From Burkholderiaceae bacterium (GTDB lineage Bacteria; Pseudomonadota; Gammaproteobacteria; Burkholderiales; Burkholderiaceae_C), in the NCBI GenBank assembly GCA_017992055.1, contig JAGOPK010000004.1:112165-176164 (forward strand): DNA of 64,000 bases. Direction: 5' to 3'. Below the pieces are notes generated by a model. It did not search any database and was not told where the DNA came from. It worked only from the letters and a program-made list of their open reading frames with translations. Numbering within the stretch: position 1 is the stretch's first letter; each line of letters begins with the position of its first letter. Made by a program: the position numbers and the translations under genes. Below, in pieces: positions 42,017 through 63,136 of this stretch.

Positions 42017-42041
42017 CTCGCGCGAGCCCATGGGGCCCAGG

Positions 42042-42056: not shown

Positions 42057-42106
42057 GCTGGCTCCACCTCCACCCAGACAGAAGGAAGACAGCGCCGGCA
42101 ATTCGC

Positions 42107-42151: not shown

Positions 42152-42181
42152 TGGCCGGCCGGGCCGGCATCGGGACACACG

Positions 42182-43255: not shown

Positions 43256-44270
43256 TCCGCACACGGCCGCAGCCGCGGCCAGGCCGCCGCGCTTCGCGGC
43301 CGTCGGCGCCGGGCGCATGGGCCGCGGCATCGCGATCGCGTTCGCCTATGCCGGGCACCGCATCGCCCTGGTCGACCTGCGCCCGCGCGATGCCGCGGCC
43401 TGGGAGCGGCTGTGCCAGGAGGCGCGGGCCGAGATCCTGGGCGCGCTGCAGGGCCTGGCCGCGATGGGCGTCGTCAGCGAGCAGCAGGTCGGACACATCG
43501 CGGCGCGCGTCGAACTCGTCCGCGCACAGGATGCGCCGGCGGCCCTGGCAGCCGCGGAACTGGTGTTCGAGGGCGTGCCGGAAACCCTGGCCGCCAAGCG
43601 CGAGGCCTTCGACTGGCTGAACCGCCATTGCCGCGACGACGCGGTGCTGACCTCCACCACCAGCAGCATCCTGGTCACGCAGCTGGCCGGGCTGGTCCGG
43701 CTGCCGCAGCGCTTTCTCAACATCCACTGGCTGAACCCGGCCTACGTGATCCCGGTGGTCGAGCTGAGCTGCCATCCGGGCACCGACCCGGACGTGCTCG
43801 ACCGCACGCGCGACATCCTGACGGGCATCGGCAAGCTGCCGGTGGTCTGTGGCGCCACGCCGGGCTACATCGTGCCGCGGCTGCAGGCGCTGATCATGAA
43901 CGAGGCCGCCCGCATGATCGAGGAAGGCGCCGCCACCGCCGAAGAGATCGACAAGGCCACGCGCTACGGCCTGGGGCTGCGCTTCGCGGCGCTCGGCGTG
44001 GTCGAGTTCATCGACTTCGGCGGCTGCGACATCCTGCATCACGCCAGCCGCGAGATGGCGCAGAGCATCGACGCGGCCCGCTATGCGGCCCCGGCCATCG
44101 TGGACGACATGATGGCCGGCAACCGGCTCGGCCTGAAGACGGGCAGCGGCTTCTACGACTATGCGGGGCGCGACCTGGCGGCCTACCGGCGCGACGTGCT
44201 GGGCCGCACGCTGGGCATGCTGCGCCATGCCGGCATGCTGCACCCGCCCAGCGACGAGACGCTGCCGTGA
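43245..44270 (+). CDS. 3-hydroxyacyl-CoA dehydrogenase family protein
   Basis: VGAGRMGRGIA, EGVPETL, STTSS, HWLNP, PGYIVPRLQ. Confidence 0.88.
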   Translation: MANDPHTAAAAARPPRFAAVGAGRMGRGIAIAFAYAGHRIALVDLRPRDAAAWERLCQEARAEILGALQGLAAMGVVSEQQVGHIAARVELVRAQDAPAALAAAELVFEGVPETLAAKREAFDWLNRHCRDDAVLTSTTSSILVTQLAGLVRLPQRFLNIHWLNPAYVIPVVELSCHPGTDPDVLDRTRDILTGIGKLPVVCGATPGYIVPRLQALIMNEAARMIEEGAATAEEIDKATRYGLGLRFAALGVVEFIDFGGCDILHHASREMAQSIDAARYAAPAIVDDMMAGNRLGLKTGSGFYDYAGRDLAAYRRDVLGRTLGMLRHAGMLHPPSDETLP

Positions 44271-45979: not shown

Positions 45980-46462
45980 TCAGGCGTCGGGGTCTTCGAG
46001 CTCGGTCCCGGGGGTCACGGCGTGCAGCTCGATCATCTGCCGCAGCGTCGTCTTCAACTCCTCGGCACGCGCCAGGCCGAAAGGCTCGAGCACGCGGTGC
46101 TCATGCTCGCGTGCCAGCGTGATCAGCTGCGAGATGGTGCGGGCGCCGCTGCGGGTGATGCGCACCAGCGTGATGCGGCGATCACTGTCGTGGGGCAGGC
46201 GTTCGACCTGCCCCTTGGCTTCCATGCGATCCAGCAGGCGGGTCACGGTCGGCTGCTTGGTCACCGTGGTCTGCGCCAGCTCGCCGATGCTGATCGGCAC
46301 GCCGTCGGCCAGTGTCGCCATGACCCGCCATTCGCTGACCGAGAAGCCGTGCTGCCGCGCCACGACGTGGAACTCGGCAGAGATGAGCTGGCTGGCCTGG
46401 GCCAGCAGCGCAGGCAGGTAGTCGTCCACGAAACGGGTGGGATTGGCGCGGCGTGAGTTCAT
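45980..46462 (-). CDS. MarR-family regulator (IadR-like position), divergent from the catabolic operon
   Basis: DYLPALLAQAS, SEWRVMATL, KQPTVTRLLDRME, DRRITLVRIT. Confidence 0.88.
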   Translation of the reverse strand: MNSRRANPTRFVDDYLPALLAQASQLISAEFHVVARQHGFSVSEWRVMATLADGVPISIGELAQTTVTKQPTVTRLLDRMEAKGQVERLPHDSDRRITLVRITRSGARTISQLITLAREHEHRVLEPFGLARAEELKTTLRQMIELHAVTPGTELEDPDA

Positions 46463-46522
46463 CGCCGGCCATCCTACCTCTGGCATGACGCTTGCTGATC
46501 CTAGGGGAATTCATGATTGTGG

Positions 46523-46590: not shown

Positions 46591-48765
46591 ATGGCCGAAA
46601 GATCGTTTGTCGAAGAAGTCAAGAAGCTGCGGCTGAAGCAGGGCGAGGTCTTCCGCGGTGAAGGCATCCTGGCGGTCACCAAGGCGCTGCTGGAGTCCGG
46701 CGTGTCGTACGTGGCGGGCTACCAGGGCGCGCCGATCTCGCATCTGATGGATGTGCTGGCCGACGCGCAGGACATCCTGTCGGAGCACGGCATCCGCTTC
46801 GAGAACAGCGCCAGCGAGGCCACGGCCGCCGCCACGCTGGCCGCCTCGGTCAACTACCCGCTGCGCGGGGCGGTGACCTTCAAGGCGACGGTGGGCACCA
46901 ATGTCGCCTCCGATGCGCTGGCCAACCTGGCGTCCGGCGGCGTCACCGGCGGCGCGCTGATCATCGTCGGCGAGGACTACGGCGAGGGCTCGTCCATCAT
47001 GCAGGAGCGCAGCCATGCCTTCGCGATGAAGTCGCAGATGTGGCTGCTCGATCCGCGGCCCAACCTGCCCAGCATCGTCGCCATGGTGAAGCAGGGCTTC
47101 GAGCTGTCCGAGGCCAGCCACACCCCGGTGATGGTGCAACTGCGCATCCGTGCCTGCCATGTGCACGGCCAGTTCGTGGCCGCCGACAACCGCCGCGCCG
47201 ACTTCACGCTGAAAGAGGCGCTGGAGCAGCCGCGGCGCGATGTCGACCGCATCGTGCTGCCGCCGGCCAGCTTCCTGCACGAGCAGGAGAAGGTGAAGCA
47301 GCGCTGGCCGGCGGCCGTGCGCTTCATCGAGCAGCGTGGCCTCAACGAGTTCTTCGCCGAGGGTGCCGACGACATCGGCATCATCGTGCAGGGCGGTTGC
47401 TACAACACCCAGGTGCGGGCGCTCGAGCGTCTGGGCCTGGCCGACGTCTACGGCCGCACCAGGCTGCCGCTGTACGTGATGAACGTGGCCTATCCCGTCA
47501 TCGAGAGCGAGGTGCTGCGCTTCTGCGAAGGCAAGCGCGCCGTGCTGGTGGTGGAGGAGGGCCAGCCCAACTTCGTTGAGCAGAACCTGGCCACCATCCT
47601 GCGCCAGGCCGGCAGTGGCACGGTGCTGCATGGCAAGGACCTGCTGCCGGTGGCCGGCGAATACACCGCCCAGGCGCTGGTCGGCGGAACGCGGGCCTTC
47701 TGCGAGAAGTACGGCCGCCTGCCGAGCGTGCCCACGGTGCCAGCGCCGGTCGCGCCCCAGCCGCCGCGCAAGATCATCCCGCTCATCAGCCAGGCCGATC
47801 TGCTGCCGCTCTCCAGCAGCGTGCACGCCCGCCCGCCGGGCTTTTGCACCGGCTGCCCCGAGCGCCCGATCTTCAGCGCGATGAAGCTGGTGCAGAAGGA
47901 CCTGGGCGAGCACCATGTCAGCGCCGACATCGGCTGCCACCTGTTCTCCATCCTGCCGCCGTTCAACATCGGCAATACGACCATGGGCTACGGCCTGGGC
48001 AGCGCTGGCGCCGCCGCGTTGAACGCACCGGCCGGCAAGCGCGCGATCTCGGTGATGGGCGACGGCGGCTTCTGGCACAACGGCCTCACCAGCGGCATCG
48101 CCAACGCGGTGTTCAACCAGAGCGACAACGTGACCGTGGTGGTGGACAACAGCTACACCTCGGCCACCGGCGGGCAGGACATCCTGTCGTCGAAGGCGCT
48201 CAATGCCACGCGCAGCACCGGCCACCTGATCGAGAAGGCAGTGCGTGGCGTGGGCGTCGAATGGGTGCGCACCATCCGGCGCACCTACGACGTGGCCGGC
48301 ATGCGCGACGCGCTGCACGAGGCGCTCACCACCAAGGAGAAGGGCCCCAAGGTCATCATCGCGCAGTCGGAGTGCATGCTGAACCGCCAGCGCCGCGAGA
48401 AGCCGCAGGTGCGCAAGGCGATTGCCGAGGGCAAGCGCATGGTGCGCGAGAAGTTCGGCGTCGACCCCGACACCTGCACCGGCGACCACTCCTGCATCCG
48501 GCTGTCGGGATGCCCCTCGCTGTCGATCAAGCCCAACCCCGATCCGCTGCGCACCGACCCGGTGGCCACCGTGCTCGAGACCTGCGTGGGCTGCGGCGTG
48601 TGCGGCGAGGTTTCGCATGCCGCCGTGCTGTGCCCGTCGTTCTACAAGGCGCAAGTGCTGAGCAACCCCAACGCCTGGGACCGCCTGCGCGAGCGCCTGC
48701 GCCAGACCGTGATCGGCTGGATGCAGCGCCGCGATGCCGCACGCCGTGCGCGTTTTGCCTTCTGA
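46591..48765 (+). CDS. iorA: Indolepyruvate:ferredoxin oxidoreductase-like alpha subunit
   Basis: GYQGAP, FCTGCPER, DIGCH, GDGGFWHNG TPP motif, C-terminal ferredoxin Cys motifs. Confidence 0.9.
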   Translation: MAERSFVEEVKKLRLKQGEVFRGEGILAVTKALLESGVSYVAGYQGAPISHLMDVLADAQDILSEHGIRFENSASEATAAATLAASVNYPLRGAVTFKATVGTNVASDALANLASGGVTGGALIIVGEDYGEGSSIMQERSHAFAMKSQMWLLDPRPNLPSIVAMVKQGFELSEASHTPVMVQLRIRACHVHGQFVAADNRRADFTLKEALEQPRRDVDRIVLPPASFLHEQEKVKQRWPAAVRFIEQRGLNEFFAEGADDIGIIVQGGCYNTQVRALERLGLADVYGRTRLPLYVMNVAYPVIESEVLRFCEGKRAVLVVEEGQPNFVEQNLATILRQAGSGTVLHGKDLLPVAGEYTAQALVGGTRAFCEKYGRLPSVPTVPAPVAPQPPRKIIPLISQADLLPLSSSVHARPPGFCTGCPERPIFSAMKLVQKDLGEHHVSADIGCHLFSILPPFNIGNTTMGYGLGSAGAAALNAPAGKRAISVMGDGGFWHNGLTSGIANAVFNQSDNVTVVVDNSYTSATGGQDILSSKALNATRSTGHLIEKAVRGVGVEWVRTIRRTYDVAGMRDALHEALTTKEKGPKVIIAQSECMLNRQRREKPQVRKAIAEGKRMVREKFGVDPDTCTGDHSCIRLSGCPSLSIKPNPDPLRTDPVATVLETCVGCGVCGEVSHAAVLCPSFYKAQVLSNPNAWDRLRERLRQTVIGWMQRRDAARRARFAF

Positions 48766-48789
48766 TTGCCTTCTGATCGGGAACGAGCG

Positions 48790-50286
48790 ATGACCCACCA
48801 ACCGATCAAGATCGCGATTCTCGCCATGGGCGGCGAGGGCGGTGGCGTGCTGGCCGACTGGATCGTCGACCTCGGCGAGGCCAACGGCCACATCGCGCAG
48901 ACCACCTCGGTGCCCGGCGTTGCGCAGCGCACCGGCGCCACCATCTACTACGTCGAGCTCTATCCCGAGCGGCAGGCCGAGGCCGACGGCGGCCAGCCGG
49001 TGCTGGCACTGATGCCGCTGCCCGGCGACGTGGACGTGGTGCTGTGCTCCGAGCTGATGGAAGCCGGCCGTGCAGTGCAGCGCGGCCTGGTCAGCGCCGA
49101 CCGAACCACCCTCATCGCCTCCACGCACCGCGTCTACTCCATCGGCGAGAAGAGCGAGATGGGCGACGGCCGCGTCGACAGCCGCCAGCTGCTGGCCCAT
49201 GCCGACCAGGCCGCGCGCCGCTTCGTGCACTTCGACATGGCCGAGGCCGCGGCGCGCAACGGCAGCGTCATCAGCGCGGTGCTCTTCGGCGCGCTGGCCG
49301 GCACCGGCGTGCTGCCCTTCACGCGAGAGCAGTTCGAGGCCACCATCGAGCGCGGCGGCGTCGGCGTCAAGCCGAGCCTGAAGGCGTTCGGCGCCGCGTT
49401 CACCCGCGCGCAGGGCGGCGACGCAGAGCCGGCCGCCGCGGCGCCGGCCGTGCCGCCGCCCCGCGCCGCGCACCCCGGGGTGCAGGCACTGGTGGAGCGC
49501 GTGGTCAACCACTTTCCCGCCGAGGCGCGCACGCTGCTGCTCGAAGGGGTGCGCCGCCTCGTCGACTACCAGGACATCGACTACGCCAATCTCTACCTCG
49601 ACCGCATGCAGGCCGCGTGCGCGCTGCCCGACCTGCCGGGCCGCACGCTGGCCTGCGAGCTTGCGCGCCACCTGGCGCTGTGGATGTCGTATGAAGACAC
49701 CGCCCGCGTGGCGCAGCTCAAGACGCGCGCCAGCCGCTTCGAGCGTGTGCGCGGCGAGGCGGGCGTGCAGGCGGACCAGCTGATCGCCATCAACGAATAC
49801 CTGCACCCGGGCCTGCGGGAGATCTGCGAGACGCTGCCGGGGCCGCTGGGCCGCTGGCTGCAGCGCTCGGCGCCTGCGCGGCGCCTGGTCGAGCGCTTCA
49901 CGCGTCAGGGCCGGGTGGTGCAGACCAGCTCGCTGCGCGGCTTTCTGATGCTGAGCGCGGTGGCGGCGGCGCGCCACTGGCGCCGCAGCACCACGCGCTA
50001 TGCCGAGGTGGACGGGCGCATCGCCACCTGGCTGGCGCACATCGCCGAGACCGCGGCCACGTCGCCCGCGCTGGCGGTCGAGATCGCGCAGTGCCAGCGC
50101 CTGGTGAAGGGCTACAGCGAGACCTACGACCGCGGCCTGCGCAACTACGACACCGTGATGGCCGCGGTGCGGCGTGCCGGCGCTGCGCTCCCGCCCGCGA
50201 CGCTGAAGGCCTGGCGCGATGCGGCGCTGTCCGACGAGCATGGCAAGGTGCTGCAGGCGTCGCTGCAGCAGCACGCGGTGGCCTGA
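48790..50286 (+). CDS. iorB: Indolepyruvate oxidoreductase-like beta subunit (extended)
   Basis: AMGGEGGGVL, SVPGVAQRTGAT, LWMSYED, RLVKGYSET. Confidence 0.88.
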   Translation: MTHQPIKIAILAMGGEGGGVLADWIVDLGEANGHIAQTTSVPGVAQRTGATIYYVELYPERQAEADGGQPVLALMPLPGDVDVVLCSELMEAGRAVQRGLVSADRTTLIASTHRVYSIGEKSEMGDGRVDSRQLLAHADQAARRFVHFDMAEAAARNGSVISAVLFGALAGTGVLPFTREQFEATIERGGVGVKPSLKAFGAAFTRAQGGDAEPAAAAPAVPPPRAAHPGVQALVERVVNHFPAEARTLLLEGVRRLVDYQDIDYANLYLDRMQAACALPDLPGRTLACELARHLALWMSYEDTARVAQLKTRASRFERVRGEAGVQADQLIAINEYLHPGLREICETLPGPLGRWLQRSAPARRLVERFTRQGRVVQTSSLRGFLMLSAVAAARHWRRSTTRYAEVDGRIATWLAHIAETAATSPALAVEIAQCQRLVKGYSETYDRGLRNYDTVMAAVRRAGAALPPATLKAWRDAALSDEHGKVLQASLQQHAVA

Positions 50287-50287
50287 C

Positions 50288-51304
50288 ATGAGCAATGCTT
50301 CGATGAACCCTGTCGCCTCCGCTCCGCTGTTCCTGCGCGTCGTCGAGGCGCGCATGCTGAACCCGCTGATCCGCATGCTGCGCCTGGCGCAGCCGGACGG
50401 CGCCGCGCTGCCCGCCTGGTCGCCGGGCTCGCACATCAAGCTCAGGGTGACGCTGCCCGACGGTTCCACCGACTGGCGCCAGTACTCGCTGATCGACTTC
50501 GACGGCAAGGCTGGCACGCCCGGTTTCGTGCCCACGCACTACACCATCGCCGTGCGCCGCGAGCAGGCTGGCCGGGGTGGCTCGCGCTTCATGCACGAGC
50601 ACCTGGAGGCCGGGGCGGCGATCGAGGTGGAGCCGCCGCGCAACGACTTCGAGCTGCAGCCGGCAGGCGGCGCCACGGTGCTGCTCGCCGGCGGCATCGG
50701 CATCACGCCGCTGGCGAGCATGGCCGCGCACTGCCAGGCTGCCGGCCGTCCGCTGCAACTGCACTACGCCGGCCGCAGCCGCGCGCTGATGGCCTTCCTG
50801 CCCGAGCTCGAAAGCCTGCTGGGCGCGCGCCTGCACGTGCATGCCGACGAAGACGCCGGCGGCCAGGTGTTCGACGTCGGCGCGCTGCTCGATGGCCTGG
50901 GGCCCGACGACCATCTCTACGTCTGCGGCCCCAAGCCGCTGCTGGACGGCGTGCTGGCCGCCACCCAGGCGCGGCACTGGGCCACTGGCCGCGTGCATTT
51001 CGAGCTCTTCACCGCGCCGGTGGCGGCGGCCGGCGACCAGCCGTTCGAGGTGGAGCTCGCGCAGTCGGGCCAGACCTACACCGTGCCGGCCAACCAGACC
51101 CTGCTCGACTGCCTGATCGAGCATGGTTGCGATCCGATGTTCGACTGCAAGCGCGGCGAATGCGGCGTCTGCGCCACGCCGGTGATCGCGGGCGAGATCG
51201 ACCACCGCGACTACGTGCTGACCTCGTCCGAGAAGGACGGCGGCAAGGTGATCCAGATCTGCGTGTCGCGCGCCAAGGGCCGACGGCTGGTCATCGACCT
51301 GTAG
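50288..51304 (+). CDS. iadC: PDR/VanB-type FMN/[2Fe-2S] reductase
   Basis: RQYSL, GRGGS, LAGGIGITP, CGP, CKRGECGVC...C; symbol from synteny with iad locus. Confidence 0.85.
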   Translation: MSNASMNPVASAPLFLRVVEARMLNPLIRMLRLAQPDGAALPAWSPGSHIKLRVTLPDGSTDWRQYSLIDFDGKAGTPGFVPTHYTIAVRREQAGRGGSRFMHEHLEAGAAIEVEPPRNDFELQPAGGATVLLAGGIGITPLASMAAHCQAAGRPLQLHYAGRSRALMAFLPELESLLGARLHVHADEDAGGQVFDVGALLDGLGPDDHLYVCGPKPLLDGVLAATQARHWATGRVHFELFTAPVAAAGDQPFEVELAQSGQTYTVPANQTLLDCLIEHGCDPMFDCKRGECGVCATPVIAGEIDHRDYVLTSSEKDGGKVIQICVSRAKGRRLVIDL

Positions 51305-51343: not shown

Positions 51344-52669
51344 ATGATCTCGTATCGCGCAAACCCCGACGCCGTGCGAGCCCTGGTCCGCGCGGACCGG
51401 GTGCACCGGGACCTGTACATCAGCCAGGAACTGTTCGAGCTGGAGCAGGAGCACTTCTTCGCCAACACCTGGAACTATCTGGGCCACGACAGCCAGATCC
51501 CCAAGCCGGGCGACTACATCACCAACGAGCTCGCCGGCCAGCCGGTGATCGTGGTGCGCCACAGCGACGGCTCGGTCAAGGTGTTGAAGAACCGCTGCGC
51601 GCACAAGGGCTCGCGGCTGGTCAGCGAGCCCTGCGGATCGACCGGCAAGTTCTTCCGCTGCCCCTACCACGCATGGACCTTCAAGACCGATGGCGCGCTG
51701 CTGTCGATCCCGCTGAAGAACGGCTACGAGGGCACGGCGCTGCACGAGTGCGAAGCCGCCAAGGGCCTGGTGGCCGTGCGCCACGTGCGCCTCTACCGCG
51801 GCTTCATCTTCGCCAAGCTCAACGACGTCGGCCAGGACTTCGAGGAGTACTTCGGCGACTCGCTGTCGTCCATCGACAACATGGCCGACCGCTCGCCCGA
51901 AGGCCAGCTCGAGATCGCCGGTGGCTGCCTGCGCTTCACGCACCAGTGCAACTGGAAGATGTTCGTCGAGAACCTGAACGACACCATGCACCCGATGGTG
52001 GCGCACGAGTCCTCGGCCGGCACGGCCAAGACCATGTGGGCCGACAAGCCGGCCGATGCGCCCAAGCCCATGGCCATCGAGCAGTTCGTGCCCTTCATGT
52101 CGGACTACAAGTTCTTCGAAGGCATGGGCGTGCGCGCCTACGAGAACGGCCACAGCTTCTCGGGCGTCAACTTCAGCATCCACAGCAAGTACTCCGGCAT
52201 TCCCGAGTACGAGCAGGCGATGAAGGCCGCCTACGGCGAGGAGCGCGCCGCTCAGATTCTCGGCATGGCGCGCCACAACACCGTCTACTACCCCAACCTC
52301 ACCATCAAGGGTGCGATCCAGGCCATCCGCGTGGCCAAGCCGGTGTCGGCCGACCGCACCATCGTCGAGAGCTGGACCTTCCGCCTCAAGGGCGCGCCCG
52401 AGGAACTGCTGCACCGCACCACGATGTACACGCGGCTGATCAACTCGCCCTTCTCGGTGGTGGGCCATGACGACCTGCATGCCTACCGCGGCATCCAGGC
52501 GGGGCTGCACGCCAGGGGCAATCACTGGATCAGCCTGCACCGCAACTTCGACCCCGCCGAAGGGCAGGCGCGCGAGCAGACCGTCATCGGCACCAGCGAG
52601 CTGCCGATGCGCAACCAGTACCGCGCCTGGCTCAAGCACATGATGATGACGATGGAGGCGCGTGCATGA
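51344..52669 (+). CDS. iadD: Rieske aromatic oxygenase alpha subunit
   Basis: NRCAHKG...CPYHAW, ENLNDTMHPMVAH, HDD; symbol from synteny. Confidence 0.85.
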   Translation: MISYRANPDAVRALVRADRVHRDLYISQELFELEQEHFFANTWNYLGHDSQIPKPGDYITNELAGQPVIVVRHSDGSVKVLKNRCAHKGSRLVSEPCGSTGKFFRCPYHAWTFKTDGALLSIPLKNGYEGTALHECEAAKGLVAVRHVRLYRGFIFAKLNDVGQDFEEYFGDSLSSIDNMADRSPEGQLEIAGGCLRFTHQCNWKMFVENLNDTMHPMVAHESSAGTAKTMWADKPADAPKPMAIEQFVPFMSDYKFFEGMGVRAYENGHSFSGVNFSIHSKYSGIPEYEQAMKAAYGEERAAQILGMARHNTVYYPNLTIKGAIQAIRVAKPVSADRTIVESWTFRLKGAPEELLHRTTMYTRLINSPFSVVGHDDLHAYRGIQAGLHARGNHWISLHRNFDPAEGQAREQTVIGTSELPMRNQYRAWLKHMMMTMEARA

Positions 52670-53154
52670 CCCCGCAAACCGTTGGCTCCGGCGACCTGAT
52701 CGCCTTTGTCGTGCACGAGGCGCGCCTGCTCGACGAGAAGCGCTTCGAGGAGTGGAACGCCCTGTTCACCGACGAGGCCTACTACTGGGTGCCGCTGACG
52801 CCCGGCCAGCCCGACGGCCTGAGCCACACCTCGCACATGTACGAGGACAAGCTGCTGCGCGAGCTGCGCATCCAGCGGCTGAAGAGCCCGCGCGCCTTCT
52901 CGCAGCTGCCACCCAGCCGCTGCCAGCACCTGCTGCAGGTGCCGGTGGTCGACCAGGCCGATGCCGCGGCCAACCGCTTCGTGCTGCGCACGCCGTTCCA
53001 CTACAGCGAGTCGCAGGGCGACGAGATCCAGTTCCTGGTCGGCACCGCCTGGCACCACCTGAGCGTGGTCGACGGCGCGCTGCGCATGACGCTCAAGCGC
53101 GTCGACCTGATCAACAGCGATGCGGCGCTGCTGGCGGTGCAACTCTTCATCTGA
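52666..53154 (+). CDS. iadE: Ring-hydroxylating oxygenase beta subunit
   Basis: EARLLDEKRFEEW, YWVP, RAFSQ.PPSR, KRVDLIN; symbol from synteny. Confidence 0.85.
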   Translation: MTPQTVGSGDLIAFVVHEARLLDEKRFEEWNALFTDEAYYWVPLTPGQPDGLSHTSHMYEDKLLRELRIQRLKSPRAFSQLPPSRCQHLLQVPVVDQADAAANRFVLRTPFHYSESQGDEIQFLVGTAWHHLSVVDGALRMTLKRVDLINSDAALLAVQLFI

Positions 53155-53156: not shown

Positions 53157-54797
53157 ATGGCGTCCACCTCTGCACACAGCACGGTCCACGGCGCCTTCGT
53201 GGCCTCGGCCGGCCGCACGCCGGCGGGCGACTTCCTGTTCCTGGAGCCGGTGACGGCCGAGGTCTATGGCCTGCCGCCGGGTGCGATCCGCTGGGACGAG
53301 GCCGCGCGCCAGGTCGAGGCGCTGCGCGCGGCCTATGCCTCGGCCGGCTGGGGCCATGGCCACCGCGTCGGCCTGCTGCTGGAGAACCGGCCCATCTTCC
53401 TGTACCACTGGTTCGCGCTCAATGCGCTGGGCGTGAGCGTGGTGCCGATCAATGCCGAGATGCGCTCGGCCGAGCTCAGCTACCTGATCGGCCACAGCGA
53501 GATCGGCCTGGTGGTGACGCTGGCACACCGGGCCGACGACCTGCAAGCCGCCGCGGCGCAGGCCGGGCGCCCACTGCACACGATCGTGGCCGAAGCCACG
53601 CACATGCCTGCGCCGCACGCGCCCGCGCCGCTGGCGGGCCAGCCGGTGGGCCTGGCCAGTGAATGTGCGCTGCTCTACACCTCGGGCACCACCGGCCGAC
53701 CCAAGGGCTGCATGCTAGCCAACGCCTACTTCCTGCGCGCTGGCGAGTGGTACGCCTCGCTGGACGGCGTGTGCAGCTACCGCCGCGATGCGGAGCGCGT
53801 GATGACGCCGCTGCCGCTGAACCACGTCAACGCGATGGCGTTCTCGACCATGGTGGTGCTGGTCGGCGGCGGCTGCCTGGTGCAGCTCGACCGCTTCCAT
53901 CCGAAGTCGTGGCTGCAGAGTGCACGCGACAGCCGCGCCACCATCGTGCACTACCTCGGTGTGATGCCCGCCATGCTGCTCTCGGCGCCCGAACAGCCGG
54001 CGGATCGCGATCATGCGATCCGCTGGGCCTTTGGCGCCGGCGTCGATCGCAAGAACCACGCCCCGTTCGAGGCGCGCTACGGCTTTCCACTGGTCGAGGC
54101 CTGGGCCATGACCGAGACCGGCGCGGCCGCCTGCATCATGGCCAACCATGAGCCGCGCCATGTGGGCAGCAATTGCTTCGGGCGCTGCGAATCCTTCGTC
54201 GAGATCCGGCTGGTTGGCGACGACGGTGCCGAGGTGCCCGACGGCACCCCGGGCGAGTTGCTGGTGCGTTCGAGTGGCACCGATCCCAGGCGCCACTTCT
54301 TCCGAGGCTACCTGAAGGACGAGGCCGCCACCGCCGAGGCCTGGGCCGGCGGCTGGTTCCACACCGGCGACGTCGTGCGGCGGGATGCCGACGGCAGCCT
54401 GTTCTTCGTCGACCGCAAGAAGAACGTGATCCGCCGCAGCGGCGAGAACATCTCGGCCGTCGAGGTGGAGAGCGTGCTCAACCAGCATGCGGCGGTGAAG
54501 GCCTCCGCCGTGGCGGCCACGCCCGACACGGTTCGCGGCGACGAGGTGCTGGCCTGCATCGTGCTCGATACCGAGGCCGGTGTGCAGCCGGGTGAGGCGC
54601 TGGCGGCCGACATCGTGCGCCATGCGCTGGCCCAGCTGGCCTACTACAAGGCGCCCGGCTACGTGGCCTTCGTGCCGGCGCTGCCGCTGACACCGTCGCA
54701 GAAGATCCAGCGCGGTGAACTGCGCCAGCTCGCTCAGGCGCTGCCCGGCCAGCCGGGCTGCTTCGACCTGCGTGCGCTGAAGAAGAGGCAGGACTGA
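53157..54797 (+). CDS. iadF: Acyl-CoA ligase (AMP-binding)
   Basis: YTSGTTGRPKG, WAMTETG, WFHTGD, RRSGENIS; symbol from synteny only. Confidence 0.8.
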   Translation: MASTSAHSTVHGAFVASAGRTPAGDFLFLEPVTAEVYGLPPGAIRWDEAARQVEALRAAYASAGWGHGHRVGLLLENRPIFLYHWFALNALGVSVVPINAEMRSAELSYLIGHSEIGLVVTLAHRADDLQAAAAQAGRPLHTIVAEATHMPAPHAPAPLAGQPVGLASECALLYTSGTTGRPKGCMLANAYFLRAGEWYASLDGVCSYRRDAERVMTPLPLNHVNAMAFSTMVVLVGGGCLVQLDRFHPKSWLQSARDSRATIVHYLGVMPAMLLSAPEQPADRDHAIRWAFGAGVDRKNHAPFEARYGFPLVEAWAMTETGAAACIMANHEPRHVGSNCFGRCESFVEIRLVGDDGAEVPDGTPGELLVRSSGTDPRRHFFRGYLKDEAATAEAWAGGWFHTGDVVRRDADGSLFFVDRKKNVIRRSGENISAVEVESVLNQHAAVKASAVAATPDTVRGDEVLACIVLDTEAGVQPGEALAADIVRHALAQLAYYKAPGYVAFVPALPLTPSQKIQRGELRQLAQALPGQPGCFDLRALKKRQD

Positions 54798-55963
54798 TGG
54801 CACGACGCAGCTATGAAGACGTGGCCGTGGCCGTGCCGGTCACGGTGCCCTACCAGCGCTTCTCCACCGACGGCGCGCACTGGTTCCTCGGCCAGGCGCT
54901 GCGGGCGCTGGTCGATGCCGGCGGCGTCGCCAAGGAGCAGATCGACGGCCTGTGCCTGTCGAGCTTCTCGCTGGTGCCCGACACGGCCGTGGGCGTGACC
55001 CAGCACCTTGGCCTGTCGCCGCGCTGGCTGGACCATGTGCCCACCGGCGGCGCCTCGGGCGTGATGTGTCTGCGCCGTGCGGCGCGGGCGGTGCAGGCCG
55101 GCGATGCCGACATCGTGGCCTGCGTGGCCGCCGACACCAACCATGTGGACTCGTTCCGCCAGACGCTGGGCGCGTTCAGCCACTTCTCGCGCGACGCCAC
55201 CTATCCCTACGGCTCGGGCGGGCCGAACTCGATCTTCGCGATGATCACGGCGCACTACATGCGCCGCTTCGGCGCGCGCCGCGAGGACTTCGGCCGCATC
55301 GCCGTCGCGCAGCGGGCCAATGCCCTGCTCAATCCGAATGCGATGTTCAAGAAGGCGCTCACGCTGGACGAGTACATGTCGGCGCGACCCATCTCCGAGC
55401 CGCTGCATCTGTTCGACTGCGTGATGCCCTGCGCCGGCGCCGAGGCCTTCTTGGTGATGAGCGTGGCGCGGGCGCGCGAGCTGGGGCTGGAGCATGTGCT
55501 GATCCGCGGCGCCATCGAGCGGCACAACGCCTTTGCCTCCGACCCGATCATGGTGCGCGGCGGCTGGCGCCAGGACCGCGACGAGCTGTATGCCCAGGCC
55601 GGCATCCGTCCCGCCGACATCGACTTCATCCAGACCTACGACGACTATCCCGTCATCGTGATGATGCACTTCGAGGACCTGGGCTTCTGCGAGAAGGGCG
55701 AAGGCCCGGCCTTTGTGCAGGCGCACACGCTCACGCACGACGGCAGCTTTCCCAACAACACCAGCGGCGGCCAGCTCTCGGCCGGCCAGGCCGGTGCGGC
55801 CGGTGGCTTTCTCGGCATGACCGAAGCGATACGCCAGCTCACCGGCCAGGCCGGTGAGCGCGCCGTGCCCGATGCGCAGCTCGGCCTGGTGGCCGGCTTC
55901 GGCATGGTGACCTACGACCGCTGCCTGTGCACCGGCGCGGTGATCCTGGGGAGATCCTCATGA
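54797..55963 (+). CDS. iadG: Thiolase-fold protein lacking thiolase catalytic residues
   Basis: TGGASG in place of CASG, YDDY, NTSGGQLSAGQ; symbol from synteny only. Confidence 0.78.
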   Translation: MARRSYEDVAVAVPVTVPYQRFSTDGAHWFLGQALRALVDAGGVAKEQIDGLCLSSFSLVPDTAVGVTQHLGLSPRWLDHVPTGGASGVMCLRRAARAVQAGDADIVACVAADTNHVDSFRQTLGAFSHFSRDATYPYGSGGPNSIFAMITAHYMRRFGARREDFGRIAVAQRANALLNPNAMFKKALTLDEYMSARPISEPLHLFDCVMPCAGAEAFLVMSVARARELGLEHVLIRGAIERHNAFASDPIMVRGGWRQDRDELYAQAGIRPADIDFIQTYDDYPVIVMMHFEDLGFCEKGEGPAFVQAHTLTHDGSFPNNTSGGQLSAGQAGAAGGFLGMTEAIRQLTGQAGERAVPDAQLGLVAGFGMVTYDRCLCTGAVILGRSS

Positions 55964-57213
55964 CGATGCCCTTGATGCGCCCCAGGCGCAAGAACCCGGT
56001 GCTGCGCACACGGCAGTTGAACCTGCCGCCGTGGGCGCGTGGCCGCGTGGCACTCGGCATCACCGCGGCGGCGGCCGAAGGCCGCTTCGAGCTGCAGGTG
56101 TGCGAGGAATGCGGCACGGTGCAGTACCCGCCGCGCGAGGCCTGCCACAAGTGCCTGTCGGTGGCACTGCGCTGGCGCGAGCAGAGCGGCGAGGGCGAGT
56201 TGCTGAGCGCGACCACGCTGCACCACAGCAACGACCTGTTCTTCCGCGAGCGGCTGCCGTGGCGGCTGGGCATGGTCGAGCTCGACGCCGGTCCGACGCT
56301 GATGGTGCATCTGCACGGCGAGGTGGCCGATGCGCCGCAGCGCGTGCGCGTGGGGGCCCGGCTCGACCGGGCCGGACAGGCGGTACTGATCGGCTTTCCA
56401 GACGAAGGGACGGCACACATGGCCGACGACAAGATGCTTCGCGAGATGACCAGCGACCCGAAGTTCCGCAAGGCGCTGGTGACCGACGGCAAGTCGCCGG
56501 TGGGCCAGGCCATCGTGCGCGCCCTGGTCAAGGCGGGCGCCGACATCGTGTGGGTGGGCCATGCCGAGCCCTGGAAGAAGCTGCCCGGCCTGGACGATAT
56601 CGGCCAGCTGCCGCAGGTGACGCTGGTGCCGCTGGACGTGACCAACGGCCGCTCGGTCACCGAGCTGGCCGGCGAGCTGGGCGGCAAGGTCGACATCGTC
56701 ATCAACAACGCCGAGCTGCACCGCAGCTTCGGCATCGGCGCGCGCCGCGGCACCGACGTGGCCAAGGCCGAGATGGACATCAACTACTTCGGCCTGCTGC
56801 GACTGGCCCAGGAGTTCGGCCCGGCGCTCAAGGGACGCTCGGCCGACGGTGTCTCGCATGCCACGGCCTGGGTCAACCTGCTGTCGATCTACGCGCTCTC
56901 CAACTTTCCCCCGCACGGCACCTTCAGCGCCAGCAAGGCGGCCGCCTACTCGCTGGCGCAGTGCCTGCGTGCGGAGATGCGCCCGGCCGGCATCCGCGTG
57001 ATCAATGTCTTCCCGGGCCCGATCGACGACGACTGGAACCAGCACATGCCGCCGCCCAAGCTGACGCCGGAAGCGCTGGCCTCGGCCATCGTCAAGGCGC
57101 TGCGCGACGGCGTCGAAGACGTCTACCCCGGCGACGTGGCCCAGGAGTGGCTGCAGCGCTGGCGCGACAACCCCAAGGTCCTCGAGCGCGAGATCGCGAC
57201 CAACGGCGGCTGA
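55960..57213 (+). CDS. iadH: DUF35 (zinc ribbon + OB fold) fused to a degenerate SDR domain
   Basis: CEECG..YPPR..CHKC; SDR part has TDGKSPVG and FSASK; symbol from synteny only. Confidence 0.78.
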   Translation: MTMPLMRPRRKNPVLRTRQLNLPPWARGRVALGITAAAAEGRFELQVCEECGTVQYPPREACHKCLSVALRWREQSGEGELLSATTLHHSNDLFFRERLPWRLGMVELDAGPTLMVHLHGEVADAPQRVRVGARLDRAGQAVLIGFPDEGTAHMADDKMLREMTSDPKFRKALVTDGKSPVGQAIVRALVKAGADIVWVGHAEPWKKLPGLDDIGQLPQVTLVPLDVTNGRSVTELAGELGGKVDIVINNAELHRSFGIGARRGTDVAKAEMDINYFGLLRLAQEFGPALKGRSADGVSHATAWVNLLSIYALSNFPPHGTFSASKAAAYSLAQCLRAEMRPAGIRVINVFPGPIDDDWNQHMPPPKLTPEALASAIVKALRDGVEDVYPGDVAQEWLQRWRDNPKVLEREIATNGG

Positions 57214-57235: not shown

Positions 57236-58042
57236 ATGAGCAGCACCACCAAGAGCAAGGCCGGCGCGCTGGCGGCCCTCGTCAGCGCGCTGGGCCAGGG
57301 ATCGATCAGGGTCATCGACCTCACGCAGACGCTGACGCCCGACTTCCCGCAGATCGCGCTGCCGCCGGAGATGGGCCAGTGCTGGCCTTTCCGCATCGAG
57401 GAGGTCTCGCACTACGACGAGCGCGGCCCTGGCTGGTACTGGAACAACTTCTCCTGCGGCGAGCACACCGGCACCCATTTCGACGCGCCCATCCACTGGA
57501 TCTCGGGCCGCGACCTGCCCAACAACTCGGTCGACACCATCCCGGTGCAGCACTTCGTCGCGCCGGCCTGCGTGATCGACTGCTCCCCGCAGGTCAAGGA
57601 CGATCCCGACTACCTGCTGACCATCGCCGACATCGAAGGCTGGGAGGCGGAACACGGCCGCATCCCCAAGGGCGCATGGGTGCTGATGCGCACCGACTGG
57701 TCCAAGCGCCACGATCCCGAGGCCTATCAGAACTTCGACGAGACCGGCCAGCACACGCCCGGCCCCAGCGCCGAGGCCGTGCGCTTCCTGGTGGAGCAGC
57801 GCGACGTGCTGGGTTTCGGTTCCGAGGCCATCGGCACCGACGCCGGCCAGGGCTACCACCTGCGCCCGCCGTATCCCTGCCACTACTACATGCACGGCGC
57901 GGGCCGCTACGGCCTGCAGTGCCTGAGCAACCTCGATCTGCTGCCGCCCGCGGGCGCGGTGCTGATCTGCCCGCCGCTGAAGATCGAGAAGGGCAGCGGC
58001 AGCCCGCTGCGCGTGCTGGCCCTGGTGGAGACCCCGGCATGA
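57236..58042 (+). CDS. iadI: Cyclase-family amidohydrolase, isatin hydrolase-like
   Basis: WYWNNFSCGEHTGTHFDAPIHW (HxGTHxDxPxH); symbol from synteny only. Confidence 0.82.
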   Translation: MSSTTKSKAGALAALVSALGQGSIRVIDLTQTLTPDFPQIALPPEMGQCWPFRIEEVSHYDERGPGWYWNNFSCGEHTGTHFDAPIHWISGRDLPNNSVDTIPVQHFVAPACVIDCSPQVKDDPDYLLTIADIEGWEAEHGRIPKGAWVLMRTDWSKRHDPEAYQNFDETGQHTPGPSAEAVRFLVEQRDVLGFGSEAIGTDAGQGYHLRPPYPCHYYMHGAGRYGLQCLSNLDLLPPAGAVLICPPLKIEKGSGSPLRVLALVETPA

Positions 58043-58776
58043 GCGGCGCGGCCACGCGCGGCACGGCCGTCGTCACCGGCGGCAGCGCCGGCATCGGCAA
58101 GGTCATCTGCCAGGACCTGCTCGATGGCGGCTGGGAGGTGGTGTCGCTGGCCCGCCGTCGCACCGACATCGACCACCCGCGCCTGCACAGCATCGAGGTC
58201 GACCTGGCCGACCGGTCCGCGACGGCGCAGGCCGTGGCCGACATCGCCCGGCGTTTCCAGGTCACCACCGTCGTGCACAACGCGGGCGTGATCCGCCCGG
58301 CGCTGCTGGCCGAGGTGAAGCTCGACGACCTCGATGCCCTGCTGGACCTGCACCTGGGCTGCGCCATCCAGCTGGTGCAGGCCTCGCTGCCGGCGATGAA
58401 GGCGGCCGGCTTTGGCCGGGTGGTGTTGCTGTCGTCGCGGGCGGCGCTGGGCCTGGCCACGCGCACCAGCTACTCGGCCACCAAGGCCGGCATGCTGGGC
58501 ATGGCGCGCACCTGGGCGCTGGAGCTCGGCGCGCTGGGCATCACGGTCAATGTCGTGGCCCCCGGCCCGATCCGCACCGACATGTTCTACGACGTGGTCG
58601 AGGCGGGCAGCGAGAAGGAGCGGGCGCTGGCGGCCAGCATCCCGGTGCGCCGTCTCGGCGAGTCGGCCGACGTGGCACGGGCCGTGCGTTTCTTCGTGGA
58701 GCCGGCCAACAGCTTCGTCACCGGACAGGTGCTTTACGTGTGTGGTGGCACCAGCGTGGGGAGCCTCGCACTCTGA
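58039..58776 (+). CDS. iadJ: Short-chain dehydrogenase/reductase
   Basis: VTGGSAGIG, HNAG, YSATK, NVVAPGPIRT; symbol from synteny only. Confidence 0.8.
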   Translation: MSGAATRGTAVVTGGSAGIGKVICQDLLDGGWEVVSLARRRTDIDHPRLHSIEVDLADRSATAQAVADIARRFQVTTVVHNAGVIRPALLAEVKLDDLDALLDLHLGCAIQLVQASLPAMKAAGFGRVVLLSSRAALGLATRTSYSATKAGMLGMARTWALELGALGITVNVVAPGPIRTDMFYDVVEAGSEKERALAASIPVRRLGESADVARAVRFFVEPANSFVTGQVLYVCGGTSVGSLAL

Positions 58777-61346: not shown

Positions 61347-62660
61347 ATGCCGAGCTACCGCGACGACCCCGGGGCCCTGCTGGCACTGGTGCAGGACCGG
61401 CGTGTGCACCGCGACCTGTACCTGAGTGAGGAAATCTTCGCGCTGGAGCAGGAGCGCTTCTTCGCCCGCACCTGGCAGTACGCCGGCCATGCGAGCGAGG
61501 TGCCGCAGCCCGGCGACTTCCGCACGCTGGAGGTGGCCGGCCGGCCGCTGCTGATGGTGCGCCAGGCCAACGGCGCCATCGGCGTCTTCTACAACCGCTG
61601 CGCGCACAAGGGCGCACAGCTGGTCACCGACGAGTACGGCAACACCGGCCGCTTCTTCAAGTGCCCGTACCACGCCTGGACCTACAAGCTCGACGGCGCG
61701 CCGCTGGCCATTCCGCTGAAGGCCGGCTACGAAGGCACGGGCCTCGCGGAATGTGAGTCCGGCCGCGGCCTGGTGCCGGTGGCCGGGCTGGGACTGCATC
61801 GCGACTTCGTCTTCGTGCGCCTCGCGTCCGAGGGCCCGGCCTTCGCCGACTACTTCGACGGCATCCTGCATGCCATCGACAACATGGTCGACCGCTCGCC
61901 CGAGGGCCGGCTGACCGTGGCCGGCGGCGTGCTGCGCAGCGTCGTGCACTGCAACTGGAAGATGTACCTCGAGAACATCAACGACACGGTGCATCCGATG
62001 TCGACGCACGAGTCGGCCACGCAGGCGGCCGGCGCGCTGTGGCAGGGCCAGCCGGCCGATGCCCCCAAGCCGATGGCGATGGAGCAGATCCTGCCCTTCG
62101 GCAACGGCTACGACTTCTTCGACCAGATGGGCGGCCGTGTCTACCCCAATGGCCACAGCGTGCTGGGCACGCGCTTCAGCATCCACTCCGGCTACGGCCG
62201 GCTCGAGGACTACGAGGCGGCGCTGCGTGCATCGCTGGGCGAGGCCCGTGCCAACGAGGTGCTGCAGCGCTCGCCGCAGAACGCGGTGCTGTTCCCCAGC
62301 CTCTCGGTCAAGGGCTCGCCGCAGGCCATCCGCGTGATCCGACCGCTGGCCGCCGACCGCACGCTGATCGAGGCCTGGAGCCTGCGCCCCGAGGGCGCGC
62401 CCGACCTGCTGCTGCAGCGCTCGATGAGCTACAACCGGCTGGTGTTCTCGCCGATGTCGGTGGTGGCACACGACGACCTGCATCTGTTCGAAAGCATGCA
62501 GCAGGGCCTGCGTGGCGAAGGCAACGAATGGGTCAGCCTGCATCGCGGCTGGTCCGCCGGCGAGAGCGACACGGCGGTGCAGGACACCAACGGCACCAAC
62601 GAGCTGCTGATCCGCAACCAGTTCCGCGCCTGGGCGCGGTGGATGGGGGCGGCGGCATGA
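61347..62660 (+). CDS. Second Rieske oxygenase alpha subunit (IadD paralog)
   Basis: NRCAHKG...CPYHAW, ENINDTVHPMSTH, HDD; colinear with 51344-52669. Confidence 0.9.
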   Translation: MPSYRDDPGALLALVQDRRVHRDLYLSEEIFALEQERFFARTWQYAGHASEVPQPGDFRTLEVAGRPLLMVRQANGAIGVFYNRCAHKGAQLVTDEYGNTGRFFKCPYHAWTYKLDGAPLAIPLKAGYEGTGLAECESGRGLVPVAGLGLHRDFVFVRLASEGPAFADYFDGILHAIDNMVDRSPEGRLTVAGGVLRSVVHCNWKMYLENINDTVHPMSTHESATQAAGALWQGQPADAPKPMAMEQILPFGNGYDFFDQMGGRVYPNGHSVLGTRFSIHSGYGRLEDYEAALRASLGEARANEVLQRSPQNAVLFPSLSVKGSPQAIRVIRPLAADRTLIEAWSLRPEGAPDLLLQRSMSYNRLVFSPMSVVAHDDLHLFESMQQGLRGEGNEWVSLHRGWSAGESDTAVQDTNGTNELLIRNQFRAWARWMGAAA

Positions 62661-63136
62661 CGGGCGCGCTCACGCCCGAGGAGTTCATCGCCCACGAGGC
62701 CGCGCTGCTGGACGAGCGCCGCTTCGACGACTGGCTGGCGCTCTTTGCCGAGGACGGCCGCTACTGGGTGCCGCTGCAGGGCGCGGCCCAGGCCGACGAG
62801 ATCACGCACAACTCGATCGCGCTGGAAGACCGGCTGCTGCTGGCGCTGCGCGTGCGGCGCCTGAAGAACCCGCGCGCGCATTCGCAGCACCCCGCCAGCC
62901 ACTGCCAGCACATCCTGCAGCGCCCGCAGCGTCTGGAGGACGGCGCCGGCGGGGAGCTGCGCATGAAGACTCCCTTCCTCTACGTCGAGGCGCGCGGCCC
63001 GCAGCAGCTGATGCTGGCTGGCACCTGCGTGCACCGGCTGTGCAGGACCGGCGGTGGCGCCTGGCTGATCCGCGAGAAACGCGTGAACCTGCTCAACCCG
63101 GGGCAACCGCTGCCGGCGATCCAGTTGTTCATCTGA
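62657..63136 (+). CDS. Second oxygenase beta subunit (IadE paralog)
   Basis: EAALLDERRFDDW, YWVP, KRVNLLN; ATGA overlap. Confidence 0.88.
   Translation: MTGALTPEEFIAHEAALLDERRFDDWLALFAEDGRYWVPLQGAAQADEITHNSIALEDRLLLALRVRRLKNPRAHSQHPASHCQHILQRPQRLEDGAGGELRMKTPFLYVEARGPQQLMLAGTCVHRLCRTGGGAWLIREKRVNLLNPGQPLPAIQLFI

Follow-up and report, generated by a model that had tools for sequence, protein, structure and literature searches.

Two side-chain aldolases of steroid metabolism pair a thiolase-fold protein with a DUF35 partner. TcLtp2-ChsH2, the steroid C17 side-chain aldolase (PDB 6OK1), has a thiolase fold without the catalytic Cys; it takes a tertiary beta-hydroxyacyl-coenzyme A (CoA) to a ring ketone and releases propionyl-CoA, and its DUF35 partner bears a C4 zinc ribbon. 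The base of Ltp2 is Tyr294 of a YDHF motif, the acid is Tyr344, and His296 is the oxyanion residue (PMC12329534). CtSal-CtShy, the bile-acid side-chain aldolase of Comamonas testosteroni (PDB 9MYR), has an SCP2-thiolase fold with Gly at the nucleophile position and is stated to be unable to catalyze thiolysis; it converts a secondary alcohol on the steroid side chain to an aldehyde and releases acetyl-CoA, with Tyr302 of YDCY as base, Cys304 as acid (C304A, C304S and C304H are inactive), and Gln347 and Gln352 in support (PMC12329534). Similar logic is found outside steroid metabolism in the ibuprofen pathway of Sphingomonas Ibu-2 and Rhizorhabdus wittichii MPO218 (plasmid pIBU218), where an aryl-alkanoate CoA ligase (IpfF), a Rieske dioxygenase (IpfAB), and a retro-aldolase made of a thiolase-like protein and an OB-fold protein (IpfD-IpfE) release an acyl-CoA from a ring tertiary alcohol (PMC9195938). 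The fold and the DUF35 partnership also occur among SCP2-type thiolases (BbsAB benzoylsuccinyl-CoA thiolase, archaeal thiolase/HMGCS/DUF35, PhlABC), whose nucleophilic Cys is retained and whose chemistry is Claisen-type or thiolytic. Here we compare with these systems the genes iadF, iadG, and iadH from a 64,000-nucleotide stretch of Burkholderiaceae DNA (the window), in which the thiolase-fold protein IadG lacks the catalytic Cys and His.

The same operon, the iad locus for aerobic degradation of indole-3-acetate (IAA), has been described in Variovorax paradoxus CL014 (Conway 2022; Ma 2023; Jiang et al. preprint 2025/2026). In that strain, anthranilate is no longer formed when iadF, iadG, iadH, or iadI is deleted, and C10H9NO4, assigned as dioxindole-3-acetate, builds up instead, most strongly in delta-iadF; C8H7NO3 (the formula of isatinate) and C7H7NO were detected downstream, while intermediates between C10H9NO4 and the downstream compounds, including CoA-bound ones, were not detected by the authors (PMC12633357). 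From annotations, IadG was called a ketothiolase and IadH an alcohol dehydrogenase, acting in a "reductive removal" that yields C8H7NO2 (PMC12633357). We consider it probable instead, from sequence motifs, structure models, and analogy with the aldolases above, that iadF-iadG-iadH is a retro-aldol side-chain-removal module that converts dioxindole-3-acetyl-CoA to isatin and acetyl-CoA. A literature search, subscription-only papers excepted, found no earlier proposal of retro-aldol cleavage, of dioxindole-3-acetyl-CoA, or of an aldolase role for IadG or IadH.

The iadFGH genes

Gene content and order match those of the Variovorax iad locus (gene list in PMC12852158; locus also in PMC12633357), and on that basis the ligase, thiolase-fold, and DUF35-SDR (short-chain dehydrogenase/reductase) genes of the window are iadF, iadG, and iadH. 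A sequence-only reading of the window had named this trio and four of its motifs; Pfam bears out the trio, and GGASG, YDDY, GGQLSAGQ, and FSASK all lie where that reading had placed them. Features discussed below are listed with their window positions (nt), residue numbers (aa) where useful, and source.

53157-54797, + strand: iadF, AMP-forming acyl-CoA synthetase (Pfam AMP-binding and AMP-binding_C)
54797-55963, + strand: iadG, Cys-less SCP2-thiolase-fold protein, proposed retro-aldolase catalytic subunit (Pfam Thiolase_C_1, PDB phmmer, AlphaFold2/Foldseek)
55046-55060, + strand (aa 84-88): GGASG, with Gly85 at the thiolase nucleophilic-Cys position (alignment)
55637-55648, + strand (aa 281-284): YDDY, Y281-D282-D283-Y284, with proposed base Tyr281 and proposed acid Asp283 (alignment with CtSal and TcLtp2)
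55757-55789, + strand: NTSGGQLSAGQ, with Gln326 and Gln331; GGQLSAGQ is aa 324-331, nt 55766-55789 (alignment with CtSal)
55960-57213, + strand: iadH, DUF35 (zinc ribbon and OB fold) fused to a degenerate SDR fold (Pfam zf-ChsH2, OB_ChsH2_C, adh_short)
56101-56154, + strand: C4 zinc ribbon CEEC...CHKC of the DUF35 domain (sequence motif)
56470-57210, + strand: putative SDR-fold pseudo-enzyme domain, the C-terminal 250 residues (Pfam adh_short, Foldseek)
56482-56505, + strand: TDGKSPVG in place of TGxxxGxG (alignment)
56704-56715, + strand: NNAE in place of NNAG (alignment)
56923-56937, + strand: FSASK in place of YxxxK (alignment)
57236-58042, + strand: iadI, isatin hydrolase of the Mn-dependent cyclase family (Pfam Cyclase, phmmer)

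Comparisons among orthologs draw on 80 genome loci whose products are 69-88 % identical to IadG, 75 of them scored for motifs. The best 120 IadG matches listed were all orthologs at least 83 % identical; more distant relatives came from 50 %-identity representatives and from tblastn against plasmids. Loci of this set are cited by number (L006 and so on) where they must be told apart.

IadF contains the motifs YTSGTTGRPKG, TGD, and SGENI, and its NCBIfam matches are to generic acyl-CoA ligases only, all sub-threshold. We propose that it is a dioxindole-3-acetate:CoA ligase. Beside iadG in L018, L024, L033, L047, L049, L050, L053, L065, and L080 stands a ligase only 34-37 % identical to IadF of the window, against 60-83 % for the ligase orthologs of the remaining iad loci, so two ligase lineages serve the same iadG-iadH-iadI module.

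IadG, a thiolase fold with an aldolase-like active site

IadG matches Thiolase_C_1 (E 1.7e-37), with Thiolase_N below its cut-off (17.4 vs 26.4 bits). In a phmmer search of PDB the ranking is 9myr_A (CtSal, E 2.9e-50), 4U4E, and 6ok1_A (TcLtp2, E 2.9e-42). An AlphaFold2 (AF2) model with a predicted template modelling score (pTM) of 0.85 finds the same two aldolases by Foldseek within ranks 1-3, at TM 0.84 to 9myr_A and 0.81 to 6ok1_A; CtSal is the top match by both sequence and fold. The sequence-only reading had likened the system to Ltp2-ChsH2, and this stands insofar as retro-aldolases are the closest proteins by sequence and predicted fold. The two-Tyr type of active site does not carry over, the equivalent of Tyr344 being absent.

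The positions of the thiolase nucleophilic Cys, acid-base Cys, and oxyanion His are Gly85, Asp283, and Gln331 in IadG. Tyr281 aligns with Sal Tyr302 and Ltp2 Tyr294, and Gln326 and Gln331 align with Sal Gln347 and Gln352. Asp283 occupies the site held by Cys304 in Sal, by His296 in Ltp2, and by the acid/base Cys of HDCF in SCP2-thiolases. At this site the relatives carry the group that transfers protons to and from the alpha-carbon of the acyl-CoA, and IadG has a carboxylate. Ltp2 Tyr344 corresponds to Gln331 (Gly333 in the phmmer alignment). CtSal therefore shares with IadG the Gly at the nucleophile position, YDxY with its base Tyr, and both Gln, while differing in its essential acid and in having NTHGG where IadG has NTSGG; in its active site IadG is nearer Sal than Ltp2. 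Replacement of the thiolase His by Gln, which had been read from GGQLSAGQ, is confirmed by alignment with 4U4E (LSYTHPG vs LSAGQAG). The term Cys-less refers to the catalytic cysteines, IadG having eight other Cys. Across the 80 loci GGASG, YDDYPV, NTSGGQLSxGQ, and FDCVMPC show little or no variation, with YDDYPV invariant in the 75 scored orthologs, and five plasmid orthologs from alphaproteobacteria (Roseibium, Shinella, Sulfitobacter, Ruegeria, Agrobacterium), about 60-65 % identical, keep the motifs of IadG unchanged. Chance is thereby excluded as the origin of these features.

These residues bear directly on the published assignment of IadG as a ketothiolase (EC 2.3.1.16), which would carry out CoA-dependent thiolysis of a beta-ketoacyl-CoA. 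That assignment has behind it the preprint (PMC12633357), the database names "thiolase family protein" and "acetyl-CoA acetyltransferase", and the fold itself, which is the thiolase fold. However, CtSal, with the same Gly as the invariant Gly85, is the enzyme stated to be incapable of thiolysis (PMC12329534). NCBIfam thiolase models all fall far below cut-off for IadG, the best reaching 222 bits where 421 are required. Because Gly, Asp (in YDDY at the HDCF position), and Gln stand at the catalytic Cys and His positions, IadG should be unable to perform thiolysis. The chemistry excludes it too: the beta-carbon of dioxindole-3-acetyl-CoA is a tertiary alcohol, which cannot be oxidized to the beta-keto group that thiolysis requires. 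We find a genuine ketothiolase hardly credible here; sequence and model together give good support to IadG as an aldolase-type member of the thiolase fold.

The proposed side-chain cleavage

Since the beta-carbon is a tertiary alcohol, retro-aldol cleavage is the carbon-carbon cleavage available. Cleavage of dioxindole-3-acetyl-CoA to isatin and acetyl-CoA had already been suggested by the sequence-only reading, and the evidence given here supports it. In the mechanism we propose, IadF would convert dioxindole-3-acetate (3-hydroxy-2-oxindole-3-acetate, C10H9NO4) to its CoA thioester, and a complex of IadG with the DUF35 domain of IadH would then cleave this tertiary beta-hydroxyacyl-CoA. Tyr281 of YDDY would deprotonate the C3 hydroxyl; the C3-CH2 bond would break, leaving the C3 ketone of isatin and the enolate of acetyl-CoA; and the enolate would be protonated, most likely by Asp283. 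The cleavage would use neither free CoA nor the nicotinamide cofactors NAD(P)(H). IadI would hydrolyze isatin to isatinate, pulling the reversible aldol equilibrium forward. The formulas agree: isatin (C8H5NO2) plus water is C8H7NO3, and dioxindole plus water is not.

The closest chemical analogy is TcLtp2, in which a tertiary beta-hydroxyacyl-CoA likewise becomes a ring ketone, although TcLtp2 releases propionyl-CoA and relies on Tyr344 and on His296 of YDHF, where IadG has Gln/Gly and Asp. Release of acetyl-CoA, as proposed for IadG, is a property of CtSal, which yields an aldehyde from a secondary alcohol, whereas IadG would yield a ketone from a tertiary alcohol on the oxindole ring. The Ipf system has the same module logic, with CoA ligation coming before oxygenation in ipf and after it in iad. 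By its proposed mechanism the iadFGH module is of one kind with Ltp2-ChsH2, Sal-Shy, and Ipf; what it adds to them is a Tyr/Asp motif, an oxindole as substrate, the fusion of DUF35 to a dead SDR, and a correction of the published assignment.

IadI and the conserved iadG-iadH-iadI block

The gene that follows iadH had been described from the letters alone as isatin-hydrolase-like, and homology makes the description firm. By phmmer, IadI matches isatin hydrolase A in 5NNA (1.3e-113) and in 5NNB (solved with isatinate; 1.8e-113), and also 5NMP, the Ralstonia solanacearum isatin hydrolase (2.9e-113). A plasmid of Roseibium (Labrenzia) aggregatum carries an operon in the order MarR-iadC-D-E-F-G-H-I-J, the cyclase of which matches the 5NNB chain over its full 257 amino acids (E 7e-176). 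The biochemically defined isatin hydrolase is therefore the product of the gene right after iadG-iadH.

Genes iadG-iadH-iadI form the most conserved block of the locus, across two proteobacterial classes. In Castellaniella (L006, L020) the block occurs without oxygenase or ligase genes within the fetched flanks, and on a Shinella plasmid (L093) iadF-G-H-I occurs without oxygenase genes alongside in the fetched stretch. Such arrangements suggest a stand-alone module from dioxindole-3-acetate to isatinate, which could use oxidized auxin from plants or other microbes. An iadG-H-I module without Rieske genes in the fetched stretch is also seen on an Agrobacterium pusense plasmid (L096).

IadH, a DUF35 domain fused to a degenerate SDR fold

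IadH matches zf-ChsH2 (1.5e-11), OB_ChsH2_C (1.5e-15), and adh_short (4.3e-22) in Pfam, and its AF2 model has a mean predicted local distance difference test (pLDDT) of 79 and a pTM of 0.80. As had been supposed, IadH begins with a true ChsH2-type DUF35, formed by its N-terminal 150 residues, which has phmmer matches to 6ok1_B (4.6e-7) and 9myr_B (2.4e-6). The four zinc-ribbon Cys of this domain are invariant in 27 aligned orthologs and in the alphaproteobacterial orthologs, so the zinc site is of the C4 type found in ChsH2, whereas that of Shy is C3H1. Like IadH, CtShy fuses DUF35 to another domain, but there DUF35 lies C-terminal to an active MaoC hydratase, where in IadH it lies N-terminal to a dead SDR fold; IpfE, unlike IadH, has no zinc-ribbon cysteines and no SDR fusion. 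Among the loci that continue beyond iadG, nearly all have iadH as the very next gene.

The SDR-fold domain departs from the canonical motifs at the Gly-loop, at NNAG, and at the catalytic Tyr, as listed above. Its catalytic tetrad Ser-Tyr-Lys(-Asn) is incomplete in the window, with Ser, Lys, and Asn kept and Tyr replaced by Phe. Replacement of YxxxK by FSASK, which the sequence-only reading had emphasized, holds for the window and for most of its relatives but is not universal, the Tyr position being Phe in 56 and Tyr in 16 of the 72 Burkholderiales orthologs. In the alphaproteobacterial orthologs the position of YxxxK reads FSASN, VSVSH, FDASQ, TAASA, or YSVSQ, with both Tyr and Lys lost in most, and the Gly-loop retains no conserved Gly (for example TDLRNPNTPA, TDARSSLALP). 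Because the SDR motifs drift while the motifs of IadG stay invariant in the same operons, the domain appears to be a pseudo-enzyme. The canonical motifs of a related DUF35-SDR fusion in L084 and the stand-alone DUF35 of L097, both described below, fit this view. The view also agrees with the earlier suggestion that the domain is probably structural or regulatory; the Gly-loop, NNAG, Tyr, and Lys positions all drift among orthologs, and on these motifs the SDR fold is a non-catalytic appendage, not an oxidoreductase. Our guess is that it might serve as a scaffold or oligomerization module.

The best Foldseek match to the IadH SDR fold is 5U4S (TMt 0.87), a stand-alone Burkholderia cenocepacia SDR solved with NADP, which lacks the catalytic Tyr (LSASK) and keeps TGADRGLG. 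Given LSASK in 5U4S, a Tyr-less SDR subfamily may exist.

The YDD clade

In an exhaustive HMMER search of 50 %-identity representatives, many relatives of IadG at 34-64 % identity carry YDD[Y/F]. A FastTree of 63 sequences, including IadG, CtSal and TcLtp2 (aligned regions only), 4U4E, IpfD, and an Ltp2-like protein of pIBU218, splits exactly into 28 sequences with YDD[YFT] and 35 without, with SH-like (Shimodaira-Hasegawa-like) support of 1.0. Motifs on the non-YDD side include YDCF, YDAF, YDSF, YDCY, and YDHF, among others. Every characterized enzyme in the tree, CtSal, TcLtp2, and IpfD among them, falls on that side, and no characterized member of the YDD clade was found among the tree sequences. 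In this tree IadG lies inside neither the Ltp2 clade nor the Sal clade and therefore belongs to a third, uncharacterized one. Gly at position 85 is found in 59 of the 63 sequences.

IpfD, 32 % identical to IadG, was considered as a YDD-clade member and rejected, since it has YDAF and an Ltp2-like Tyr (GFY) and lies outside the clade in the tree. Beside the ipf cluster on pIBU218 (L092:1939-5557) are an Ltp2-type protein (YDHF and GEAY) and a C4 DUF35, accompanied by an enoyl-CoA hydratase and a CaiB-type CoA-transferase; the set resembles a complete hydratase/aldolase side-chain module.

All 10 ORFs (open reading frames) inspected downstream of nine other YDD-clade representatives encode a CxxC...CxxC zinc ribbon, the next ORF being the only context shown by several of the contigs. 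An AMP-ligase gene often precedes the YDD-clade gene (L084, L087, L099), and some YDD-clade genes lie in non-iad contexts. We advance a broader reading tentatively, a little short of an even bet. It holds that IadG represents a third catalytic class of thiolase-fold aldolases, marked by a Tyr/Asp dyad in YDD[Y/F], and that it would be the first of them shown to act on a non-steroid heteroaromatic substrate. The YDD clade, with at least 28 clusters at 50 % identity, always paired with C4 DUF35 and often with an acyl-CoA ligase, would be a widespread and so far unrecognized family of acetyl-CoA-releasing lyases of aryl- and heteroaryl-alkanoate side chains. As a scaffold, the dead SDR of IadH would hold the aldolase to other Iad enzymes and pass the reactive isatin directly to its hydrolase.

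Two contigs show other arrangements. In L097:12-2403, downstream of an iadG-like YDDY gene (45 % identity), come first a free-standing DUF35 gene of 155 amino acids and then a canonical SDR gene like iadJ, a version of the module without the pseudo-SDR fusion. That SDR was considered as the unfused counterpart of the SDR domain of IadH and rejected, since its motifs are intact and it shares the C-terminus of IadJ, the protein that it resembles. L084:1-9170 (Logan contig DRR493918) encodes two YDDY thiolase-like proteins, a DUF35-SDR fusion, a stand-alone DUF35, and an AMP-ligase; the fusion keeps the canonical motifs TGSTGGIG and YCASK. L084 also encodes a thiamine pyrophosphate-dependent decarboxylase and an aldehyde dehydrogenase, which would fit a route from isatinate through 2-aminobenzaldehyde to anthranilate, matching the literature intermediate C7H7NO.

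Weighing the proposal

Several observations weigh against the retro-aldol proposal. The two known catalytic acids, Ltp2 Tyr344 and Sal Cys304, are both absent from IadG; Asp283 is chemically competent and the most likely acid, and is assigned that role purely by position. The AF2 model of IadG has pLDDT below 50 at residues 116-141, 199-204, and 327-330, near the active site. The physical complex of IadG with IadH is one that we infer from homologues and synteny. Orthologs within Burkholderiales conserve the SDR fold no less than the remainder of IadH and never vary at Ser309, Lys326, or Asn275; the domain must therefore have some selected function. Finally, the compound that accumulates after IadFGH and in delta-iadI is C8H7NO2, the formula of dioxindole, not C8H5NO2, the formula of isatin (PMC12633357). 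The simplest account would be that isatin, building up when IadI is missing, is reduced non-specifically to dioxindole, the C8H7NO2 observed; this compound is the main loose end of the proposal. Action of the aldolase on the CoA ester of the diol C10H11NO4, before IadJ, was considered as another source and rejected, since what the published delta-iadJ strain accumulates is C10 compounds and not C8H7NO2 (PMC12633357).

The last two of these points, conservation of the SDR fold and accumulation of C8H7NO2, also favor an active, NAD(P)H-dependent IadH, with IadFGH performing "reductive removal" to dioxindole, which is then re-oxidized to isatin or taken by IadI. C8H7NO2 accumulates as well in a strain expressing iadCDEFGH_JK2 (PMC12633357), and classical work on B. 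japonicum, as cited elsewhere, puts dioxindole before isatin. The minority of orthologs with Tyr, the binding of NADP by the Tyr-less 5U4S, and the intact motifs of the L084 fusion may be added on the same side. However, Asp and Pro replace two glycines of TGxxxGxG, NNAG has become NNAE, and acidic residues are conserved at the dinucleotide site, with Phe prevailing at the Tyr position. Alphaproteobacterial operons, including that of the crystallized isatin hydrolase A, lose Tyr, Lys, and every loop Gly, although IadG keeps its motifs there. IadI is an isatin hydrolase, and C8H7NO3 is the hydration product of isatin, not of dioxindole. The iadG-like gene of L097 manages with a stand-alone DUF35 and no SDR fusion. 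An active reductase appears improbable in light of these facts.

It is also conceivable that IadG with the IadH DUF35 domain is an aldolase-type or otherwise non-thiolytic enzyme with a different thioester or a different chemistry. It might act on the CoA ester of some other C10 intermediate, decarboxylate its substrate as TbSLP weakly does with malonyl-CoA, or hydrolyze the CoA ester, with cleavage then following spontaneously. The YDD clade offers no characterized member among the tree sequences to argue from, IadG lacks both established acid residues, iadGH has beside it, in different loci, ligases of two unrelated types (60-83 % and about 35 % identity), other YDD-clade genes lie outside iad contexts, and the published metabolomics did not detect CoA-bound intermediates (PMC12633357). 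Against this, the knock-outs place IadF, IadG, and IadH between C10H9NO4 and the C8 compounds (PMC12633357), and linkage of iadG and iadH to an isatin hydrolase gene is the most conserved feature of the locus in two proteobacterial classes. An exact loss of C2 from a beta-hydroxy acid is moreover the outcome of a retro-aldol reaction. We regard such alternatives as unlikely and retain retro-aldol cleavage of dioxindole-3-acetyl-CoA as the probable reaction. Correction of the published assignment of a ketothiolase and an alcohol dehydrogenase in a reductive removal is, by the inferences above, well supported.

The rest of the locus

Judged by gene content and order, 45.9-59 kb of the window (G+C about 70 %) is a complete iad operon. 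Pfam assignments of all genes give the Variovorax-type order, MarR / iorAB-like / iadC-D-E-F-G-H-I-J / solute-binding proteins, and the locus is colinear with those of Variovorax and Pseudacidovorax. The closest sequenced relatives of iadG are from Pseudacidovorax and other Comamonadaceae (about 88 %), followed by Variovorax (84-86 %); V. paradoxus orthologs of IadF, IadG, and IadH among the loci are 76-89 % identical to those of the window, which represents another Comamonadaceae lineage. The remaining genes are as follows.

45980-46486, - strand: iadR, MarR-family regulator (Pfam MarR)
46591-50286, + strand: iadA/iadB, IorA/IorB-like 2-oxoacid:ferredoxin oxidoreductase pair at the operon head (Pfam)
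50291-51304, + strand: iadC, PDR-type reductase of the upstream IAA-oxidizing step (Pfam, literature)
51344-53154, + strand: iadD and iadE, Rieske oxygenase alpha and beta subunits of the upstream IAA-oxidizing steps (Pfam, literature)
58039-58776, + strand: iadJ, canonical SDR with TGGSAGIG and YSATK intact (Pfam adh_short_C2)

IadJ makes C10H9NO4 (PMC12633357), and solute-binding-protein genes lie downstream of iadJ in the window. The iadF stop and iadG start overlap in TGATG. The iadG stop overlaps an iadH ATG (55960) in ATGA, which makes that ATG a more likely start than the GTG at 55927 given in the ORF list; a second ATGA joins the iadI stop to the ATG at 58039, the most likely start of iadJ. 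By these overlaps the genes are translationally coupled at iadF/G, iadG/H, and iadI/J.

Isatinate is an aryl-glyoxylate and so could be a substrate of the IorA/IorB-like pair, giving 2-aminobenzoyl-CoA; the published minimal pathway, iadC-K2, works without this pair (PMC12633357). At 61347-63136, flanked by solute-binding-protein genes, are the alpha and beta genes of a further Rieske oxygenase, paralogous to iadDE; no reductase belonging to it is visible within the window. Just upstream of iad, at 42041-44270, are genes of the opine-dehydrogenase family and for a 3-hydroxyacyl-CoA dehydrogenase, preceded by a TctC-type binding-protein gene.

Significance

Through the iad pathway, Variovorax and many further root and marine bacteria clear auxin and restore the growth of plant roots, and work is under way to engineer the pathway into other strains. 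In the literature the middle steps have been assigned from database names alone, with labels that are chemically impossible for a tertiary alcohol and are contradicted by the sequences. If the retro-aldol proposal is true, the transplanted minimal pathway would need ATP and CoA, and no NAD(P)H, at the side-chain step, and two carbons of IAA would enter central metabolism as acetyl-CoA. The tight linkage of iadG, iadH, and iadI would be explained by the immediate consumption of reactive isatin. Thiolase-fold aldolases would extend beyond steroids, with a Tyr/Asp variant joining the Tyr/Tyr and Tyr/Cys variants. Chiral 3-substituted 3-hydroxy-oxindoles are valued scaffolds, and the large uncharacterized YDD clade would become a source of candidate side-chain lyases and of biocatalysts for the formation of carbon-carbon bonds.

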